Positions 18,411 to 33,721 of a DNA stretch of 37,157 bases are shown here, in pieces. How positions within the stretch are numbered: position 1 is the stretch's first letter; every line of letters begins with the position of its first letter. The notes beneath the pieces are model-generated. The model was not told the origin of the DNA. It worked only from the letters and a program-made list of their open reading frames with translations, and did not search any database. The stretch is from an uncultured Clostridium sp. Its GTDB lineage: Bacteria > Bacillota > Clostridia > TANB77 > CAG-465. The position numbers and the translations under genes were made by a program. Location of the stretch: NCBI GenBank assembly GCA_964617175.1, contig CAZTVT010000002.1, positions 1 to 37,157 on the forward strand. The letters are read 5' to 3'.

Positions 18411-18605
18411 TTACTTCCTCCTTTGAAAATTAATACATTTCTCATCTCGTATATTTAATCTACAACGTATTGTATTACGTTTTTCACAACTCTTACATTG
18501 TGTTTCTTTTATCTCTTTTTCATTTATTAAAAACTCTTTACTTAATTTCTCTCTTAGTATTTCATCATATATATAATTCTTATATTGTTTTGATTTTTTA
18601 CTCAT
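18411..18605 (-). CDS. Hypothetical small Cys-containing basic protein (first late-operon gene)
   Basis: 64-aa ORF with CKSCEKRNTIRCRLNIRDEKC, tightly packed with the next gene. Confidence 0.45.
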   Translation of the reverse strand: MSKKSKQYKNYIYDEILREKLSKEFLINEKEIKETQCKSCEKRNTIRCRLNIRDEKCINFQRRK

Positions 18606-18651
18606 TTGTTTACCACTACCTTTTTATTACTCATTTCTTAAAATAAGCATT

Positions 18652-18677
18652 AAAAAAGCAGCCCGTTATTGGACTAC
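18652..18677 (-). terminator. Intrinsic terminator just upstream of the late operon
   Basis: Minus-sense GUAGUCC-AAUAAC-GGGCUGC (two G.U pairs) followed by U6. Confidence 0.5.
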
Positions 18678-18704
18678 ATTGTATTTTTTTATTGTCTAAT
18701 TTTG

Positions 18705-18734
18705 TTGACTTGTAATATTACAACATGTTATAAT
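18705..18734 (+). promoter_or_regulatory. Sigma-A-type promoter of the candidate toxin gene
   Basis: TTGACT (18705-18710), 18-nt spacer, TATAAT (18729-18734), with TG at the extended -10 position. Confidence 0.65.
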
Positions 18735-18776
18735 TAATTTGGCTCCAATCTGTTAGCCAGAAAGGAGGTACAATTA

Positions 18777-18866
18777 ATGTTTCTATTTATTGTGTTTGTG
18801 AATGCGATAACTGATTTTATTAATGCTATTAGCAATTTTATTTCAATTATTCGCAAACACAAATAA
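18777..18866 (+). CDS. Candidate type I toxin: 29-aa hydrophobic peptide with basic C-terminus
   Basis: SD AGAAAGGAGGT (18759-18769) lies 7 nt before the ATG. Peptide MFLFIVFVNAITDFINAISNFISIIRKHK. It has its own promoter and a strong terminator. Confidence 0.6.
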   Translation: MFLFIVFVNAITDFINAISNFISIIRKHK

Positions 18867-18870
18867 GGCC

Positions 18871-18904
18871 AATAGCTTGAGCGCCAACTCAAGCTATTTT
18901 TATT
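18871..18904 (+). terminator. Intrinsic terminator of the toxin transcript (loop CGCCAA)
   Basis: 11-bp stem AATAGCTTGAG / CTCAAGCTATT, loop CGCCAA (18882-18887), then a T-run. Confidence 0.85.
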
Positions 18905-18929
18905 ATATGCAATAAATTTATATTTATAC

Positions 18930-19073
18930 GAAAAATGAGAGAGTAGCGCCAACTACTCTCTTACAACTAAATGTTTCTATTTATTTTACCCTTTCAAGAA
19001 AGGAGGTGAATAAAAAAATGAATTTTCATTTCACCATTGTGCAATAAGATTACATAACTTGTTTTCTTACTGT
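18930..19073 (-). ncRNA. Candidate antitoxin sRNA (~140 nt), convergent with the toxin gene
   Basis: Bounded by the minus-strand promoter at 19080-19108 and a 9-bp terminator hairpin at 18938-18961 followed by U5. There is no SD-led ORF. It contains perfect antisense to the toxin SD block (18997-19007) and to the toxin start region (18970-18985). Confidence 0.55.
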
Positions 19074-19079
19074 ACTTAC

Positions 19080-19108
19080 AGTATAACATAACCGTTATAC
19101 ATTGTCAA
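19080..19108 (-). promoter_or_regulatory. Sigma-A-type promoter of the candidate antitoxin sRNA
   Basis: Minus strand: TTGACA (19108-19103), 17-nt spacer, TATACT (19085-19080), with a TG extended -10. Confidence 0.7.
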
Positions 19109-19437
19109 GTGTTTTATGTAATCTTATAAAAATTATTTGACACCTCATGAAATTTGTATGAATAATAGCACTACCATAATAGATAGTGCTATATAAGAGG
19201 ATGATATGAAAACTAAGGTTTCCCTTGTCTGTATTTTATATTATAATTTTTAGCCTTTAAAACAGAAAAACTTGACTAAATTGAAAACGAGTTCCTTTTC
19301 TCTCATTCACATTTGTACTTACCACCAATTTCAAATGCTTATATTCAGTTTTTACTATGATTCGTGTGGTTCAATCACCTCATAGATTTCTTGGTACCTG
19401 TTATCTAATCAGTATAAATACTTGTTATTAGATATGG

Positions 19438-19471
19438 TGGTAGTAATTAGCGTACTACCAATGCTTTTTTT
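19438..19471 (+). terminator. Plus-strand intrinsic terminator in the ORF-free island
   Basis: TGGTAGTA-ATTAGCG-TACTACCA, then ATGC and T7. Confidence 0.55.
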
Positions 19472-19571
19472 ATCAATTTTTATTAACAAGAGACCTTTTT
19501 TCAAGATAGTTAATTTTCTTAGAGAAGTTTTCCGATACTTCTCACTATACTAATTATAACACGTTTGTTTT

Positions 19572-19592
19572 AAAAAAGTGCGGCACTTTTTT
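19572..19592. terminator. Bidirectional terminator at the end of the early/middle operon
   Basis: AAAAAAGTG-CGG-CACTTTTTT, overlapping the stop codon of the 218-aa gene. Confidence 0.5.
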
Positions 19593-20247
19593 ATTTTTTG
19601 CATATTTTTTCAAATATTTTTCTTTTTATAACAGCCATTTTCTTTTTTATTTGGTCAATACTAAACTCATAGTTATATTTTTTCTTATAAGATAATATAG
19701 TGTCATTAAAACTAAGTTTTGATTTACCATATTTACAATCTATTATAAACCTATCTTTTTCAGATAAACTATCAAGTGCTTTTTCTAATATATAATATCT
19801 TCTTTTTACTCCTCTTAATCTTTCTTCTTCAAGTTCTATAAAATCAGATATTTTCTTTCTTATATTTTCTCTATTAATTGTTTCATTTTCAAGTACTGAA
19901 TATACTCCACCTTTCTTTTTAGGCATTCCAAAAGTATCACAACTTTTTAAATCAGAATACCATTCATTTAAGTAATCGTCGTCGTTCCACTTTTCATTCA
20001 ATTCTTTTCGCCATATTTTTATTTTTTCAGTGTTAACTTTTATATATTCTTTATCATCTTGATGTTTTTTTAACATATTAGTTACATCCTTCATATCTAT
20101 ATAAGCATCTGCACAAGGTGTATCACTTGTCCTATAAATAGTTACTGGTTCTTTACAAAACTTACAATAATTATAACTTTCACACATTCCGCCATTTTTA
20201 TTGCAAGCATCCCTTTCTAATATTTCTTGTAATAAATTTTTATCCAT
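19591..20247 (-). CDS. Putative late-gene transcriptional regulator (Cys-rich N-terminus, sigma-70 region-4-like / ArpU-RinA-like C-terminus)
   Basis: 218 aa, the last gene before the late block. The C-terminal stretch LEKALDSLSEKDRFIIDCKYGKSKLSFNDTILSYKKKYNYEFSIDQIKKKMAVIKRKI resembles region 4. Confidence 0.4.
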   Translation of the reverse strand: MDKNLLQEILERDACNKNGGMCESYNYCKFCKEPVTIYRTSDTPCADAYIDMKDVTNMLKKHQDDKEYIKVNTEKIKIWRKELNEKWNDDDYLNEWYSDLKSCDTFGMPKKKGGVYSVLENETINRENIRKKISDFIELEEERLRGVKRRYYILEKALDSLSEKDRFIIDCKYGKSKLSFNDTILSYKKKYNYEFSIDQIKKKMAVIKRKIFEKICKK

Positions 20248-21781: not shown

Positions 21782-22994
21782 CTAATTTTTAGATTTAAAA
21801 TTATAAATAGGTTTTATAATTCTTTCTACTTCTACAGTATCTTTTATATTGTCTAATATTTCGTGCATTGGCTTATAAACAAATGGTGATTCGTCTATTG
21901 TTTCCTCAACTACACTTGTTGTATATATACCTTTCATACTTTCTTTAAAATCTTCTAACTTAAATGTTTCTTTAGCTTTCATTCTTGACATTATTCTTCC
22001 TGCTCCATGAGGTGCTGAACAATTCCAATCTTCATTTCCTTTACCTACTGCTATTATTGAACCATCTCTCATATTTATTGGTATTAATACCCTTTCACCT
22101 TTTTTAGCACTTATTGCTCCTTTTCTTACTATGTTATCATCAAAAGAAATATAATTATGTATTGTTTCAAATCCATTATTTGTAAAATATAATGCCATTG
22201 ATACACCTGAATATTCTTTTAATATTGTATCTGCTATCATTATTCTATTTATAGTTGCATATTCTTGACATATTTTCATATCGTGCAAATACATTTCTCT
22301 ATATTTACCTTCTAAATAACAAAGTTCATTTGGTAAATCAGATTTATTATTTATATATTCTTTTTCTAACTCTTTCAAAGCCTTTTGTATTTCTGACTTT
22401 CTACCTTGTTTTTTATATGTATTTATTATTTCTTCTTTTCTTTTAAACATTTCTTCTTTTCCAGAACATAACTGTATAGCTAAATTTTGATAATAATCTG
22501 CAACTTGTTTACCTAAATTTCTGCTGCCAGTATGTATAACTAAATATTTATTATTATCAGTATCTACATCTATTTCTATAAAATGATTTCCACCACCTAA
22601 AGTGCCTATTGCTCTATTGAATTTTTTAGTTTCTTTTAATTCTCTTAAACAATATAATTCATTTATAGGCGTAAACTCTTCTAATTTATGTTCTCTTATA
22701 TTTCTTCCACTAGGTATATTTTCATTGATTACTTTATCTAATTTTTCTAAATCTAAATCAATATTCCCTAATTCAACACATAACATACCGACAACCTATA
22801 TCTACTCCTACAATATTAGGTATTACTTTATCACCTAAATCAGCTGTAAATCCTATTACACACCCTTTTCCAGCATGGACATCTGGCATAATTCTCACTT
22901 TACAATTTTTAAATGGTTTTTGTTCTAACAATAAATTAATTTGTTCTACTGCCTCTTGCTCTATATTGCTAGTAAATATTTTTAAATCACTCAT
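21782..22994 (-). pseudogene. rtcB: RtcB-family 3'-phosphate RNA ligase split by a 1-nt frameshift
   Basis: 1213 nt, not a multiple of 3. The upstream ORF carries MPDVHAGKG and ends VGVDIGC-RYVMC-stop. The downstream ORF starts MLCVELG and carries GGGNHFIE and SAPHGAGR. Removing one base at 22790 restores VGVDIGCGMLCVELG. Confidence 0.85.
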
Positions 22995-28907: not shown

Positions 28908-28936
28908 TTTACAAATATCATTCAGAATGGTATAAT
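28908..28936 (+). promoter_or_regulatory. Plus-strand promoter inside the ORF-free early-region gap
   Basis: TTTACA (28908-28913), 17-nt spacer, TATAAT (28931-28936), with a TGG extended -10. Confidence 0.55.
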
Positions 28937-28942
28937 TGTATT

Positions 28943-29337
28943 GACTTAATACCCTATGAGGTATTGTCGAAAGGATGTGATTATTTTGACAAAACTTTTG
29001 ACTTTACCCTGCTTCTTAAAGATTAGTGATTTATATGGTGGTAGAACTATATAAATCAGCTGGATAGCTTAAAATCTAAAATTCTAACTGCTATGGGGTA
29101 ACTTATTACTTATTTATTTGCAGAACTACAACTGCATAAGTGTTAGAGCTTTCATAGAATTTACGAGTGCTAGTTGTAATATTAGTTGAATATGTATGGG
29201 CATACTGATGACATGGAATGTCGTAAAATAAACGTACTGTATGAATGTATGGGCTATATACTAATTGCAAAAGTTTAAGATATACAAATTGTAGAGAAAT
29301 ACTAATCATACTAGCACTATGGTTAGTATTTTCTATT
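28943..29337 (+). ncRNA. Candidate ~0.4-kb non-coding transcript antisense to the early operon
   Basis: Starts at the promoter above and has no SD-led ORF. It contains hairpins at 28948-28965 and 29027-29058. It ends at a 10-bp hairpin (29298-29330) followed by a U-rich tract. Confidence 0.35.
29027..29058 (+). repeat. Fourth UGGUAGAA-loop hairpin (12-bp stem)
   Basis: UGAUUUAUAUGG[UGGUAGAA]CUAUAUAAAUCA. The G.U pair forms only in the plus sense. Confidence 0.8.
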
Positions 29338-29936: not shown

Positions 29937-30302
29937 ATGAGTTTTGGTGAAAGATTAAAATATTTAAGAGAAAGAGATAAAATGTATCAATCAGAATTGG
30001 CTGAAAAATTAAATTTAGCACCTAGTTCAATAAGTATGTATGAGCGTGGCGATAGAGATCCTGATACTTCTACCTTATCAAAAATTGCCGAGATTTTTAA
30101 CGTGACTACAGATTACCTACTAGGACGTACTGATGAAACTAATACTGTAAAAGAAATAGACAAAAAATTAAAAGAAAATAATTTACATATTGCAGCTAAT
30201 TCTAAAGTAGACTTAGGTAAATTAGCAAAACTAGATGATAAACAAGCTAAGATTATAAATAACTTAATTGATGACTTTTTAGAGGATGAGGATGATTTGT
30301 GA
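29937..30302 (+). CDS. XRE-family repressor (CI/ImmR-like)
   Basis: 121 aa with an N-terminal HTH_3 (ERLKYLRERDKMYQSELAEKLNLAPSSISMYERGDRDPD...DYLLGRTDE). It is divergent from the Cro-like genes. Confidence 0.85.
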   Translation: MSFGERLKYLRERDKMYQSELAEKLNLAPSSISMYERGDRDPDTSTLSKIAEIFNVTTDYLLGRTDETNTVKEIDKKLKENNLHIAANSKVDLGKLAKLDDKQAKIINNLIDDFLEDEDDL

Positions 30303-30748
30303 TGGAAGATGAAAAACTAACAACGAAAGAAGCTTTAGAACTAATCGATTTGCTAAAAAATATATGTGAGAAAGAAAACTTAGTACTTCCTAATCACGGT
30401 CAAAAATCAGAGTTTTATGTTGAAGCTGATGAAAACAAAAAGCAATTCATTGTTAATATAAACCATTGCAATCGAAATATTAACAAATATACTTTTCAAA
30501 GTAGAACTGCTTTAAATCATATCCCTTTACTTAGGTTAGATATAAACCCTAACGGAGTTCACATGAACCCTGATGGTAAAAAAATATACGGAACACACTT
30601 GCATATATATAATCAAGATTTTGGATTAGATGAAGCTATAAAGTTTGATATCAATGAACCAAATTTATACAATCATTGCTTAGCTTTTTTCAAAAAATTC
30701 AACATTTTGCATAACAATTGTGATATAATATATCAAGAAGAGTTTTAA
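30302..30748 (+). CDS. Unknown 148-aa protein translationally coupled to the repressor (His-rich motif HMNPDG...GTHLHIY)
   Basis: The ATG overlaps the repressor TGA (TGATG); a GTG at 30299 is an alternative start. I faintly recall a similar uncharacterised family paired with XRE genes, but this is unverified. Confidence 0.7.
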   Translation: MEDEKLTTKEALELIDLLKNICEKENLVLPNHGQKSEFYVEADENKKQFIVNINHCNRNINKYTFQSRTALNHIPLLRLDINPNGVHMNPDGKKIYGTHLHIYNQDFGLDEAIKFDINEPNLYNHCLAFFKKFNILHNNCDIIYQEEF

Positions 30749-30760
30749 GGAGGTTTTTTC

Positions 30761-31531
30761 ATGGAAGTTTTAAATGCAGTTCAATTAAAAAAATATTACG
30801 TTGACTGGTTAAATGAAGAAATAAAATTAAATAAACTTAATAATAATTACATTGAAATTACAAGTCCACTTCTAGATATAAACAATGACTATCAACAAGT
30901 ATATGTTAATATTTCAAATCCAAACGAACTTTGTATATCTGATGATGGTTATACAATTAATAACTTATATATGCTTGGTATTGATATAAAAACAGGAAAA
31001 AGAAAAGAATTATTAAATCAAATATTAAAAAAATTTGGTGTGCATTTCGTTAACAATGAAATTTTAGTATATTGCAATTCACATGATTTCGCACAAAAAC
31101 TATTTTTACTTTCACAAGCTATGTCAAAAATAGAAGATATGTTTATGCTTTCAAAAAATAAAGTCGCATCATTTTTTCAAGAAGATGTAAAAAATTATTT
31201 AAATAAACATGAAATTTACTATAGCCAAGATGTAAACTTTGTAGGTAAATCAGGACTTCTTCATTCATACGACTTTTTGTTCCAAAAAACAAAAACTAAA
31301 CACGAAAGACTTTGCCAAACAATTAATAATCCAGATATGCAAAGCTTTAAAAATTGTGCATTCAGTTGGAATGATACCAAAGATAAAAGAGATAAAAATA
31401 GCGAGTTTATCGTTTTGTTAAATGATAAAAAAAGTATATCTCAAAACGTATTAAATGCGTTTAATAATTATGACATTAAAACAATATTATGGTCTCAAAT
31501 AGACAAAAACATTGATTTATTAACGGCTTAA
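30761..31531 (+). CDS. DUF1828/DUF1829-like two-domain protein (function unknown)
   Basis: 256 aa with a strong RBS (AAGGAGG). N-terminal pattern ITSPLLDINNDYQQVYV...ISDDGYTINNL. C-terminal pattern GKSGLLHSYDFLF...FSWNDTK. These match my memory of those Pfam domains. Confidence 0.65.
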   Translation: MEVLNAVQLKKYYVDWLNEEIKLNKLNNNYIEITSPLLDINNDYQQVYVNISNPNELCISDDGYTINNLYMLGIDIKTGKRKELLNQILKKFGVHFVNNEILVYCNSHDFAQKLFLLSQAMSKIEDMFMLSKNKVASFFQEDVKNYLNKHEIYYSQDVNFVGKSGLLHSYDFLFQKTKTKHERLCQTINNPDMQSFKNCAFSWNDTKDKRDKNSEFIVLLNDKKSISQNVLNAFNNYDIKTILWSQIDKNIDLLTA

Positions 31532-31626
31532 TAGTAGATATAAATTTTTATTAAAAATGAACCTAATATATAATTACAAAATAACCATAAATTATGTAAA
31601 AAAATTATCGGGCATTAGAAAATTAT

Positions 31627-31654
31627 TAGCGGTTCATTGCAACCGCTATTTTTT
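31627..31654 (+). terminator. Intrinsic terminator ending the repressor operon
   Basis: TAGCGGTT-CATTGC-AACCGCTA followed by T6. Confidence 0.8.
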
Positions 31655-31754
31655 ATACCAAAACAAATTTAACTAATGATAAAGCACTACAAAGTAAGTA
31701 GTGCTACTATATAATTTTCAAAAAGAACAAATGTTTTGTGATTAGGAGGTACAA

Positions 31755-32192
31755 ATGAAAAATTTAAATGACTTATATTCTTTAACTGAAAAAGAAAATA
31801 TAAAAGTTAAGAAAAAAGATTTTAAAGAATTTCAAGCAAATGGTTTATGTTTATATAACACAGATAAATGTAATATTTACTTAAATAAAAATATATCAAC
31901 AGAAACTGAAGAAAAATGTATACTTGCAGAAGAAATCGGTCACTATAAAACTGGAATAGATTTTAATTTATTAAGTACTAATAAAGAAAATGATAAAATT
32001 ACACGCTCTATAAATGAATTTAGAGCAAAAAAGTGGGCAGTTAATGAACTTATACCTTTTGAAACTTTTAAACGATTTTTAGGCTCAAATTACTCAAATT
32101 TCGAGGTAGCAAATGAAATAGGTGTAACTGAGGAAATGATAAACATGGCCTGTTTTATTTATGAGCCTATGTTATATGAAGAAAGGGGCTAA
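31755..32192 (+). CDS. ImmA/IrrE (DUF955)-like protein with non-canonical EEIGH in place of HExxH
   Basis: 145 aa with a strong RBS (AGGAGG). It contains CILAEEIGHYKTG and sits immediately upstream of the integrase, as in immR-immA-int modules. Confidence 0.6.
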   Translation: MKNLNDLYSLTEKENIKVKKKDFKEFQANGLCLYNTDKCNIYLNKNISTETEEKCILAEEIGHYKTGIDFNLLSTNKENDKITRSINEFRAKKWAVNELIPFETFKRFLGSNYSNFEVANEIGVTEEMINMACFIYEPMLYEERG

Positions 32193-32195
32193 AAA

Positions 32196-33713
32196 ATGGT
32201 TGCTTTATATGCAAGACAAAGTATAGATAAAAAAGATTCTATAAGTATAGAAACTCAATTAGAATATGGAAAAAATATCTGTAAATTAGAAAATCTAGAA
32301 TATAAAGAATACTTTGATAAAGGTTTTAGTGGAAGTAATTTAGATAGACCTAAATTTAAAGAGTTGCTAAAAGACATAGAAAGTGGTAAAATAAATAAAG
32401 TAGTTTGTTATAGATTAGATAGGATTAGTCGTAGCTTAGTTGATTTTTCTAATTTACTAGTATTATTCCAAAAATATAATGTTGAATTTGTATCTGCTAC
32501 TGAGCAATTTGATACAAGTACACCTATTGGCAGAGCTATGATTAATATTATAATGGTATTTGCACAACTAGAAAGAGAAACTATTCAACAACGTATAACA
32601 GATAACTATTATGCAAGGGCAAAAAATGGATCCTTTGCTGGAGGTAATATTCCTTTAGGATATACTAATAAAAAAATACTGATAAACAACAAGAAAGTTT
32701 CCGTTTTAGAACAAGACAGCGAACAAATACAATATGTTAAAGAAATATTTGAACTATATATTCAGAACAAAACAATAAGAAATATTGCAAGTTACTTTTC
32801 AAAAAAACTTAATAAATTAATTACAGATAAATATATTAGAAGGATTTTAATGAATCCTATATACGTAAAATCTGATGTTAAAATATATAACTATTTCAAA
32901 AATAAAGGTTATATAATACACAACAAAATAGATGAATTTGATGGTACACATGGTATTATAATATATGGAAAAGAAAAAGGTAAAAAAGGAAGAGTATATA
33001 CTGATATATCAGAACAACTTATTATACTTTCTAATAGCGAACCCATAATCGAATCCAACCAATTTTTATATGTACAGGAGAAATTAGATATGAATAAACT
33101 CAAAACTACAGCAAAAAAACAAGGAAAATATACATGGTTAACTGGCTTAATAAAATGCAAAGATTGCAATCATAGTATAGGAATTAAATTAACTAAAGGA
33201 TATAAATACCTATTATGTTCTAGACATAGATTATATAATGCATGTACAAATAAAACTTCATTTAAATTAGATGAAGTAGAAGATATAGTATATAATAACA
33301 TTTGCAATTACATAAAAGGTTTAGATTTAGAAAAAATAGAAAATAAAAAAGTAGATAATTCTTTATTACTTAACCTTAATACACTTAATATAGAAAAAAT
33401 TAAAGAACATGAAAAATTAAATAATATTATTGAAGCAATAGCAAATGGTGATAAATTAAGTGATATATTAAAAGATAAAGCTATTGAACTTGATAATAAT
33501 ATAAAAGAACTTGATAAAAAAATATTAAATATTCAAACAAAAATTGATAACAACAATTCTAATATAAATTTAGAATTATATAAAAAATCTATGGACTTAT
33601 TGCTAAATAAATTTAGCACTTTAACTATTGAAGATAAACAAAGTGTGATTAAAACTTTTGTTAGTGAAATTTTACTAAATAAAGATACATTAGAAATAAA
33701 ATATAACTTATAA
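32196..33713 (+). CDS. Large serine recombinase (prophage integrase)
   Basis: 505 aa with an N-terminal resolvase domain (VALYARQSIDKKDSISIETQ...YRLDRISRS), a recombinase domain, a Cys cluster (CKDCNH...CSRHRLYNAC) and a C-terminal coiled coil. Confidence 0.9.
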   Translation: MVALYARQSIDKKDSISIETQLEYGKNICKLENLEYKEYFDKGFSGSNLDRPKFKELLKDIESGKINKVVCYRLDRISRSLVDFSNLLVLFQKYNVEFVSATEQFDTSTPIGRAMINIIMVFAQLERETIQQRITDNYYARAKNGSFAGGNIPLGYTNKKILINNKKVSVLEQDSEQIQYVKEIFELYIQNKTIRNIASYFSKKLNKLITDKYIRRILMNPIYVKSDVKIYNYFKNKGYIIHNKIDEFDGTHGIIIYGKEKGKKGRVYTDISEQLIILSNSEPIIESNQFLYVQEKLDMNKLKTTAKKQGKYTWLTGLIKCKDCNHSIGIKLTKGYKYLLCSRHRLYNACTNKTSFKLDEVEDIVYNNICNYIKGLDLEKIENKKVDNSLLLNLNTLNIEKIKEHEKLNNIIEAIANGDKLSDILKDKAIELDNNIKELDKKILNIQTKIDNNNSNINLELYKKSMDLLLNKFSTLTIEDKQSVIKTFVSEILLNKDTLEIKYNL

Positions 33714-33721
33714 ACGTTGAT

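Follow-up and report, generated by a model that had tools for sequence, protein, structure and literature searches.

How can one short gene be held off by the RNA of another with which it shares no stretch of transcript, and does such a pair, lying in an integrated temperate phage, form a toxin-antitoxin module? This question is raised by a segment at about 18679-19150 of a 37,157-nt stretch of DNA from an uncultured Clostridium sp. (contig CAZTVT010000002.1; the whole stretch is called the window here), where a plus-strand gene for a hydrophobic peptide of 29 amino acids (aa) faces a minus-strand gene for a small RNA (sRNA). An earlier reading of the same DNA, the original prediction, had proposed a type I toxin-antitoxin (TA) locus in the style of par/Fst. 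We consider it probable that the segment is an sRNA-repressed small-peptide module of type I TA-like design, carried as an accessory cassette of the phage. The par-like type I logic is supported by the signals and predicted structures described below and by the way in which the RNA contacts co-vary between cognate partners, and the module is a candidate for a new type I TA family with fully non-overlapping genes and co-evolving kissing terminator loops.

The two genes and the predicted contacts between their RNAs

The features of the module, which represents type A of four diverged types (A to D), are as follows.

18705-18734, plus strand: toxin promoter TTGACT-18-TGtTATAAT, 11/12 match plus TG extension, conserved in types B and C
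18742-18767, plus strand: 5' stem-loop of the toxin mRNA, in which CUCC (18743-18746) pairs with GGAG (18764-18767) of the Shine-Dalgarno (SD) sequence
18759-18769, plus strand: extended SD sequence AGAAAGGAGGT with an AGGAGG core, copy 1 of the 11-nt repeat
18769-18791, plus strand: target site in the mRNA (-8 to +15 around the AUG), complementary to the sRNA, co-varying in types B-D
18777-18866, plus strand: SD-led 29-codon open reading frame (ORF) MFLFIVFVNAITDFINAISNFISIIRKHK, putative toxin, kept with its SD in types B-D
18871-18898, plus strand: toxin mRNA terminator with 11-bp stem, loop CGCCAA (18882-18887) and T-tract, from terminator scan and fold
18930-19073, minus strand: predicted antitoxin sRNA, about 144 nt, ORF-less, from promoter, terminator and fold
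18938-18961, minus strand: sRNA terminator with 9-10-bp stem and RNA loop UUGGCG (18952-18947), from terminator scan and fold
18997-19007, minus strand: anti-SD block ACCUCCUUUCU, an arm of sRNA hairpins 2 and 3, exact repeat in type A only
19080-19108, minus strand: sRNA promoter TTGACA-17-TGtTATACT, 11/12 match plus TG extension, highly conserved in all types
19044-19057 and 19114-19127: perfect inverted repeat with 14-nt arms on either side of the sRNA promoter, longer than any other perfect inverted repeat of the window

The original prediction had listed a plus-strand promoter, a strong SD, a 29-codon ORF and an 11-bp terminator, together with a convergent minus-strand promoter, an ORF-less RNA and its terminator, and all of these were found where it had placed them, the predicted length of the sRNA being about 144 nt. 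Promoter sites of this quality (at least 11/12 plus TG) occur just three times in the whole window, and two of them belong to the module. The toxin mRNA is predicted to start at G18741/G18742 and to be about 165 nt long, with 8 nt between the SD and the ATG at 18777. On the plus strand of the lytic half, the 29-codon ORF is the only ORF of more than three codons with a GGAGG and a start codon, a combination that marks a real gene nearly always in this genome. No SD-led ORF was found in the sRNA of the window.

The two terminators are separate hairpins with different stems, 39 nt apart, so placed that the transcripts do not overlap, and the same holds in types B-D. What the two genes have in common is a set of direct repeats, one of 16 nt (18776/18970) and one of 11 nt (18759/18997), the former extendable to 23/24 nt with one mismatch and one indel (18769-18791 versus 18962-18985). 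Both terminator loops lie within a third repeat of 10 nt, AGCGCCAACT (18880/18945), and their complementarity reaches 10 nt when the closing pairs are included. Further copies of the three blocks were found on neither strand of the window, in which CGCCAA occurs in the two terminator loops only, and none of 2000 dinucleotide shuffles of the sRNA region held a block of at least 16 nt or three blocks of at least 10 nt. The absence of overlap, the exact repeats and the complementary loops had all been claimed before, and each claim held. Also borne out is the statement that the order of the repeat blocks prevents colinear duplexes. Read 5' to 3', the two RNAs present the three blocks in one and the same order (in the DNA the order is mirrored and the orientation direct), and therefore the SD and start duplexes must be separate helices; the adjoining SD and start blocks of one mRNA could hardly both be paired with one sRNA molecule.

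The toxin mRNA (18742-18906, from the predicted transcript start) folds with -43.3 kcal/mol (z = -4.5 versus shuffles), and the GAGG of its SD has a probability of being unpaired of about 0, both in the minimum free energy structure and in the partition function. A long-range 14-bp stem joins codons 5-9 to codons 25-29, and the terminator loop has an unpaired probability of 1.0 in the partition function. The sRNA (19073-18930; -36.3 kcal/mol, z = -4.1) is predicted to form three hairpins and the terminator, laid out as the 5' hairpin (19072-19042), hairpin 2 (19035-19005), hairpin 3 (19004-18989), the anti-start block (18985-18962) and the terminator hairpin. Most of the anti-start block is single-stranded (its unpaired probability averages 0.62), and the anti-SD block is buried in the sRNA's own hairpins. 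Cofolding of the two RNAs, a check proposed with the original prediction, gave a free-energy difference (ddG) of -20.7 kcal/mol versus -5.0 +/- 2.5 kcal/mol with shuffled sRNAs (z = -6.4). The start-block duplex has an energy of -21.0 kcal/mol, or -16.6 net once the opening costs are subtracted, and by the same reckoning the 6-nt loop contact has a net energy of -6.2 kcal/mol and the SD-block contact one of -1.9 kcal/mol.

These energies bear on the claim that the sRNA is antisense both to the first codons of the toxin and to its ribosome-binding site. The first part stands, with start-block complementarity in all four types. The second is true of the sequence, but by these folding models the 11-nt exact repeat of the SD probably does not serve as a main contact: it is found in type A only, lies within an sRNA hairpin and gains a net -1.9 kcal/mol. 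The sRNA stretch UCACCUCCUUUCU is identical to the 3' tail of Firmicute 16S rRNA, and this is why the anti-SD stretch matches an optimal SD.

A mechanism can be proposed from these elements. A strong sigma-A-type promoter would give an mRNA of about 165 nt for the 29-aa hydrophobic peptide, and a convergent, equally strong promoter would give a non-coding sRNA of about 144 nt, both promoters being constitutive. The toxin mRNA would be masked by its own 5' hairpin and, because the SD is locked with the mRNA 5' end, would be poorly translated when alone. The first contact between the RNAs would be the kissing of the terminator loops, 5'-CGCCAA-3' with 5'-UUGGCG-3', after which the mostly single-stranded stretch of the sRNA would pair with positions -8 to +15 around the start codon and block ribosome binding; this duplex may trigger decay besides, and the 11-nt SD/anti-SD match would be an auxiliary or alternative contact at most. 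As long as the prophage is present the sRNA would keep the peptide off, and if the supply of sRNA were lost, through loss of the element or shut-off of the promoter, the peptide would be made and would damage the membrane. The biological role may then lie in maintaining the prophage, in exclusion or in defence. What we infer here by analogy with par, SprA and the C. difficile prophage TAs (PMC7472228, PMC6393315, PMC6563280, PMC7699646) comprises transcription, the order of binding, toxicity, the half-lives of the RNAs and the role.

Predicted cognate pairing in four module types

Relatives of the module were found by two routes: one locus, L023, through a homologue of the 64-aa protein encoded next to the module, and six IMG/VR contigs, L027-L032, through a scan with the conserved sRNA-promoter sequence. 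With the locus L011, these fall into four types.

Type A: window and L011; peptide MFLFIVFVNAITDFINAISNFISIIRKHK, 29 aa
Type B: L023, L028, L029, L031 and L032; peptide MTEFTDFIVAITGLLTIIYTIIVFFSNKLK, 30 aa
Type C: L027; peptide MAEAILFTVVLTILAKVLLK, 20 aa
Type D: L030; peptide MVENIILIVVLIFFIRELKH, 20 aa

All four peptides are hydrophobic with a basic C-terminus (grand average of hydropathicity 1.1-1.9) and are preceded by an SD 7-10 nt before the ATG, and the peptides of the other types share about 33% aa identity or less with type A. Peptide A has a hydrophobic N-terminus, a helix whose polar residues form one stripe, and a basic tail ending RKHK, and its Kyte-Doolittle maximum is 1.84 in a 19-residue window. 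The types share the sRNA promoter (12/12 in type B), the sRNA 5' hairpin, the inverted repeat around the promoter, and an adjacent plus-strand promoter with a hairpin; the changes in the 5' hairpin of the sRNA are G-U-compatible across the four types. Almost nothing is shared among them in the toxin ORF, the recognition block or the terminators. Each of the four toxin mRNAs is predicted to have its SD core paired, through differing anti-SD sequences, which in types A, C and D lie at the extreme 5' end if the predicted transcript starts are correct.

In every type the sRNA gene holds blocks identical to the start and early codons of its own toxin: GATATTCAAT and ACTGAATTTAC are the start-region blocks of type B, GATAATATTAT and CAATTTTATTTACT those of type C, and the blocks of type D are three in number, colinear, and take in the start codon. 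Of the exact SD repeat, types B and D have a part and type C has nothing. The paired terminators share the loop motifs CGCCAA, CGGCAA, TTCCAAG and TTTGCCC in types A to D, respectively. When every toxin mRNA was cofolded with every sRNA, the cognate pair was the best in each row and column of the matrix [cognate A-D: -20.0, -15.1, -25.2 and -30.9 kcal/mol; non-cognate: -2.2 to -12.9 kcal/mol]. Terminator-loop complementarity follows the same pattern [cognate A-D: 10, 8, 8 and 7 nt, P = 1e-4 to 6e-3 per type in composition-preserving shuffles; non-cognate: 2-4 nt]. Between types A and B, at least 5 positions downstream of the AUG and one loop position have changed in both partners with Watson-Crick pairing kept. 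The par-like logic of repeats plus a loop contact, as first proposed, is thus seen in four types, in which start block and loops have changed in concert. In type C the stem of the sRNA terminator is perfect on the minus strand only, where a plus-strand A/C mismatch becomes a G-U pair, and this supports the strand assigned to the sRNA. A second plus-strand mini-gene behind the SD-like block in the sRNA gene was considered and rejected, the ORF lengths there being 9, 4, 0 and 34 codons in types A to D. The 34-codon ORF of type D (plus strand, L030 at about 1007-1169) is probably fortuitous, because its equivalents in types A-C have 9, 4 and 0 codons.

Conservation is far higher in the promoter and the first 35 nt or so of the sRNA than in the remainder, the sRNA promoter lies between the arms of an inverted repeat, and the anti-SD stretch is similar to the 3' tail of 16S rRNA and could bind many SDs. 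All three observations would fit an sRNA that acts mainly on a host or phage target through its 5' domain, with the peptide mRNA as a decoy or sponge, or a pair of RNAs that are both non-coding. We hold this to be improbable, since an SD-led ORF is kept in four types despite near-complete sequence turnover and each time encodes a hydrophobic, basic-tailed peptide, since the variable part of the sRNA follows the start-codon region of its own toxin, and since no other convincing sRNA target was found in the window.

A small membrane peptide that is regulated by the sRNA and tuned in the lysogen, without being a toxin, would fit all of the RNA-level evidence equally well; it could serve superinfection exclusion, lysis timing or the regulation of a membrane protein. 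None of the peptides matches a toxin family, peptides C and D are very short, and the slot that holds the module also holds accessory genes and tRNAs, which are not addiction modules. We nevertheless regard such a peptide as unlikely, because type I TA loci are marked by just this combination of tight repression in several layers (a self-sequestered SD with a dedicated cognate antisense RNA under a consensus promoter), basic-tailed hydrophobic peptides of 20-30 aa and a location in a prophage (PMC7472228, PMC6563280), and diversified cognate pairs that do not cross-react are typical of TA systems.

The pattern of shared and divergent parts could also mean that the module is a specificity-cassette system, in which toxins are swapped or diversified on a conserved antitoxin platform together with a matched start block and kissing loop. 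We think this rather unlikely. The platform, kept by closely related temperate phages, would consist of the promoter, the co-varying inverted repeat and the 5' domain of the sRNA. If it were so, the types would be mutually non-cross-protecting addiction or exclusion types in the competition between related prophages, the sRNA promoter flanked by the inverted repeat would be a switch that frees the toxin on induction, curing or superinfection, and the loops would form a natural kissing-loop 'address code' between two physically separate terminators. The arms of the inverted repeat have co-changed in type B (ACAAG...CTTGT), and in types C and D a position shows T/G. The repeat may be a regulatory operator pair, with an RNA stem or a tiny inverton as other possibilities; an invertible promoter was judged unlikely because the arms are only 56 bp apart. 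On the toxin side, an 18-bp near-palindrome, ATTACAACATGTTATAAT at 18717-18734, overlaps the spacer and -10 element of the promoter, is present in a single copy in the window, and could be a repressor site.

The cargo slot of the host phage

The window carries an integrated temperate phage (GC content about 26-28%), with lytic genes on the minus strand (portal, large terminase, RtcB-like ligase and others), lysogeny genes on the plus strand (helix-turn-helix repressor, ImmA-like peptidase, large serine recombinase), and host-like genes next to these. The module lies in a 985-nt slot that is free of ORFs, as had been noted before, between a gene for 218 aa (19591-20247, weak DUF722), taken as the late regulator gene, and the 64-aa gene/terminase operon. 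The best genome match of the 64-aa gene is to an uncultured Clostridia metagenome-assembled genome (MAG) from rabbit gut. Two further features mark the borders of the module.

18658-18677, minus strand: conserved intrinsic terminator at the left slot border, upstream of the 64-aa gene/terminase operon; the module starts directly after it
19137-19192, plus strand: divergent promoter-like site TTGACA-18-AATAAT with a 9-bp hairpin (19165-19192), adjoining the right border of the module

The module had been described as bracketed by minus-strand terminators, which is correct for the left one (18677-18658), whereas the right one (19438-19460) is on the plus strand.

We compared the slot in 26 related loci, obtained through the flanking proteins. 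Both flanks are conserved and the content is variable, with the homology to sister phages ending at 18677/18678 on the left in at least 20 loci and at about 19435 on the right. In sisters the slot is empty or holds tRNA-Met, tRNA-Pro with tRNA-His, a GC-rich segment or a protein-coding accessory gene. Most sister phages are without the module, and it is absent from more than 20 sister loci that have both flanks, so that, on this comparison of sequences, the module is an accessory cassette and not a packaging or regulatory site. In L011 a stretch corresponding to 18614-19516 is 100% identical to the window, amid diverged flanks and beside a terminase of another type, which indicates a recent exchange of the cassette.

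The same comparison bears on the reading that there is no functional module at all, and that the repeats are a decayed duplication, chance, or a cis-acting DNA site such as cos/pac or terminase-binding repeats. The blocks are indeed direct repeats in DNA, and the region directly precedes the terminase region, a common place for cos/pac sites and repeats. We find this reading scarcely credible. The same flanking and packaging genes are present without the module in more than 20 sister phages, for which reason cos/pac and terminase-binding repeats were rejected, and the module is found beside at least two terminase types. Blocks in mirror order but direct orientation cannot be produced by a simple tandem duplication or inversion, which were likewise rejected as its origin, and the shuffle statistics together with the four-way cognate co-variation argue against chance.

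Other contents of the slot and its surroundings were recorded alongside. The tRNA genes of sisters are at 2776-2851 in L003, 1552-1627 in L009 and 2722-2876 in L004, and a small ORF of the window at 19206 (MKTKVSLVC...) is no gene; it is the 32-nt conserved trailer (19204-19235) of the sister tRNA units. A GC-rich cassette of about 428 nt occupies 4815-5242 of L001 and is also seen in the right part of L032; its match to manA-RNA in L001 is weak (19.5 bits and E = 0.011, short of the gathering score), and it may represent a structured RNA not yet described. The prophage of a Clostridia MAG (L014, 807-1034, plus strand) has an equivalent minus-strand promoter that drives a 75-aa protein rich in Ser, His and Asp, and not an sRNA; this protein has no Pfam or PADLOC match. 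The promoter-like site and hairpin at 19137-19192 are conserved in all module types and in L014. Together with the plus-strand terminator at 19438-19460, which is present in all sister loci, the promoter at 19137 would give a transcript of about 300 nt across 19173-19470, a stretch with no structure signal (z about -0.6) and no Rfam match; the region 19204-19434 likewise has no structure signal (z about 0) and no Rfam match.

Farther from the slot, a full-length FuFi-1 RNA (RF02986) is found at 29083-29332 on the plus strand (92 bits; gathering score 59.6), in the interval from the early lytic genes to the repressor, and the promoter before it (28908-28936, plus strand) is the third of the window's only three sites of at least 11/12 plus TG. 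The RtcB-like RNA ligase (21782-22786, minus strand) covers Pfam model positions 138-425, and together with the tRNA genes of sister phages it suggests a theme of tRNA repair or counter-defence. The lysogeny module (29937-34378, plus strand) comprises an HTH_3 repressor, DUF6978, DUF1828/1829, an ImmA/IrrE-like peptidase and the large serine recombinase. The ORF directly behind it (218 aa, TTG start) is peroxiredoxin-like, and the prophage may have inserted into or next to a peroxiredoxin gene.

Weight of the evidence and likeness to known systems

Several points weigh against an sRNA-repressed toxin module. The starts and ends of both RNAs rest on prediction. The polar residues of peptide A (N9, T12, D13, N16, S19, N20 and S23) all fall inside a 120-degree arc of the helical wheel, and because this stripe includes Asp13 the peptide, instead of spanning the membrane, may be amphipathic. 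In peptides C and D the hydrophobic residues number just 12-16, few for a transmembrane helix. No match to a known toxin family was found for peptides A-D in Pfam, NCBIfam, PHROGs, PADLOC or PDB. The blocks are in parallel and not in colinear order, and the SD and start duplexes cannot form as one helix. Gene conversion could in principle keep short direct repeats identical, which is unlikely for blocks of 7-16 nt. Finally, there are just four independent types, from a narrow set of metagenomes.

Searches in the databases gave little to set beside the module. Pfam, NCBIfam and PDB returned no match to the four peptides at E <= 10. Neither the phages of INPHARED nor the plasmids of PLSDB yielded a match to the module or its peptide. 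Scans of viral, genome and metagenome sequence collections with degenerate patterns for the peptide and exact patterns for the repeats returned nothing relevant; two matches, to the high-GC phage L013 and to an unrelated repeat in L016, were rejected as due to chance. An exact look-up of the spurious ORFs that overlap the module found nothing. Rfam 15 gave only noise over 18550-19300 (E >= 0.36, far below the gathering scores), and neither RNA matches a family there.

If the sRNA-repressed toxin module is confirmed, it would represent a new phage-borne type I TA family of uncultured gut Clostridia-like hosts, with peptides that have no detectable relatives. It would imply that the par design (loop kiss, start-codon pairing and a self-masked SD) is possible without a shared terminator, and that co-evolution alone can keep two independent terminator loops complementary. 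Nature has supplied, in the four cognate types, a series of compensatory mutations for studying the specificity that kissing loop and seed block give the antitoxin, and the types could also serve to ask whether such modules act in the maintenance of prophages or in competition among related phages. Cargo slots, and ORFs of 20-30 codons that gene callers skip, can hide modules of this kind.

The closest parallel is par of pAD1 (E. faecalis RNA I/Fst and RNA II) with the par-like loci of Firmicutes (PMC7472228). As in par, the promoters are convergent, here also in the other types, and the sRNA is read across direct repeats (DRa/DRb in par) and is complementary to the toxin initiation region. 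The complementary terminator loops, co-varying here, form a separate contact, an intramolecular 5' stem-loop (5'-SL in par), predicted here in all four types, sequesters the SD, alongside the helix that guards the mRNA 5' end (5'-UH in par), and a small hydrophobic peptide with a charged C-terminus is encoded on a mobile element (PMC7472228). Unlike par, the module has no shared bidirectional terminator and no 3' overlap, only the loop being common to its two terminators. The two RNAs end at terminators of their own, with unlike stems, and the complementarity of the loops must therefore be maintained by selection. The blocks of the module are not colinear, its sRNA has about 140-160 nt with a conserved 5' domain whereas RNA II has about 40-65 nt, and the YUNR motif, where present, is in an sRNA loop (types A and C). 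The original prediction had called the locus par/Fst-style, but the peptide is not an Fst homologue. The Fst/Ldr signature consists of a transmembrane helix, a Trp before a highly charged C-terminus and a P/D/S/TxxxG(C) motif (PMC7472228); the motif and the conserved Trp are in none of the four peptides, peptide A is without W, G, C and P, and the peptides have no Pfam match. The module is not a member of the par/Fst family, because it has no shared terminator, no Fst/Ldr signature and no hidden Markov model match.

With the E. coli pairs tisB-istR-1, shoB-ohsC, zorO-orzO and dinQ-agrB, the module shares non-overlapping genes and a limited complementarity of about 18-23 nt (PMC4147584). Those genes are divergent, however, and their antitoxins target a long 5' untranslated region or standby site and not the start codon; they lack a terminator-loop contact, and they are chromosomal and Gram-negative. 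Type I TA modules are known in prophages of Clostridia (PMC6563280, PMC7699646), and like the C. difficile and B. subtilis prophage TAs (CD0977.1-RCd11, bsrG-SR4, txpA-RatA), for which a role in maintenance of the element has been proposed or shown (PMC6563280, PMC7699646), the module is borne by a prophage and combines a small hydrophobic toxin candidate that has a charged C-terminus with an antisense RNA. In contrast to it, their antitoxins are cis-encoded and overlapping, their toxins have 34-60 aa, they show no sequence similarity to the module, and they do not have the architecture of dispersed repeats.

The S. aureus pairs SprA1/SprA1AS and SprA2/SprA2AS (PepA1, PepA2) resemble the module in that a trans-acting, non-overlapping domain blocks ribosome loading at the ribosome-binding site and start codon, in that cognate pairs do not cross-regulate (which is predicted here), and in their hydrophobic peptides of about 30 aa (PMC6393315). 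The Spr genes overlap at their 3' ends, whereas the genes of the module do not overlap, and the active part of the antitoxin, which is its 5' end in Spr, would here be the 3' half near the terminator, with the loop-loop contact in addition.

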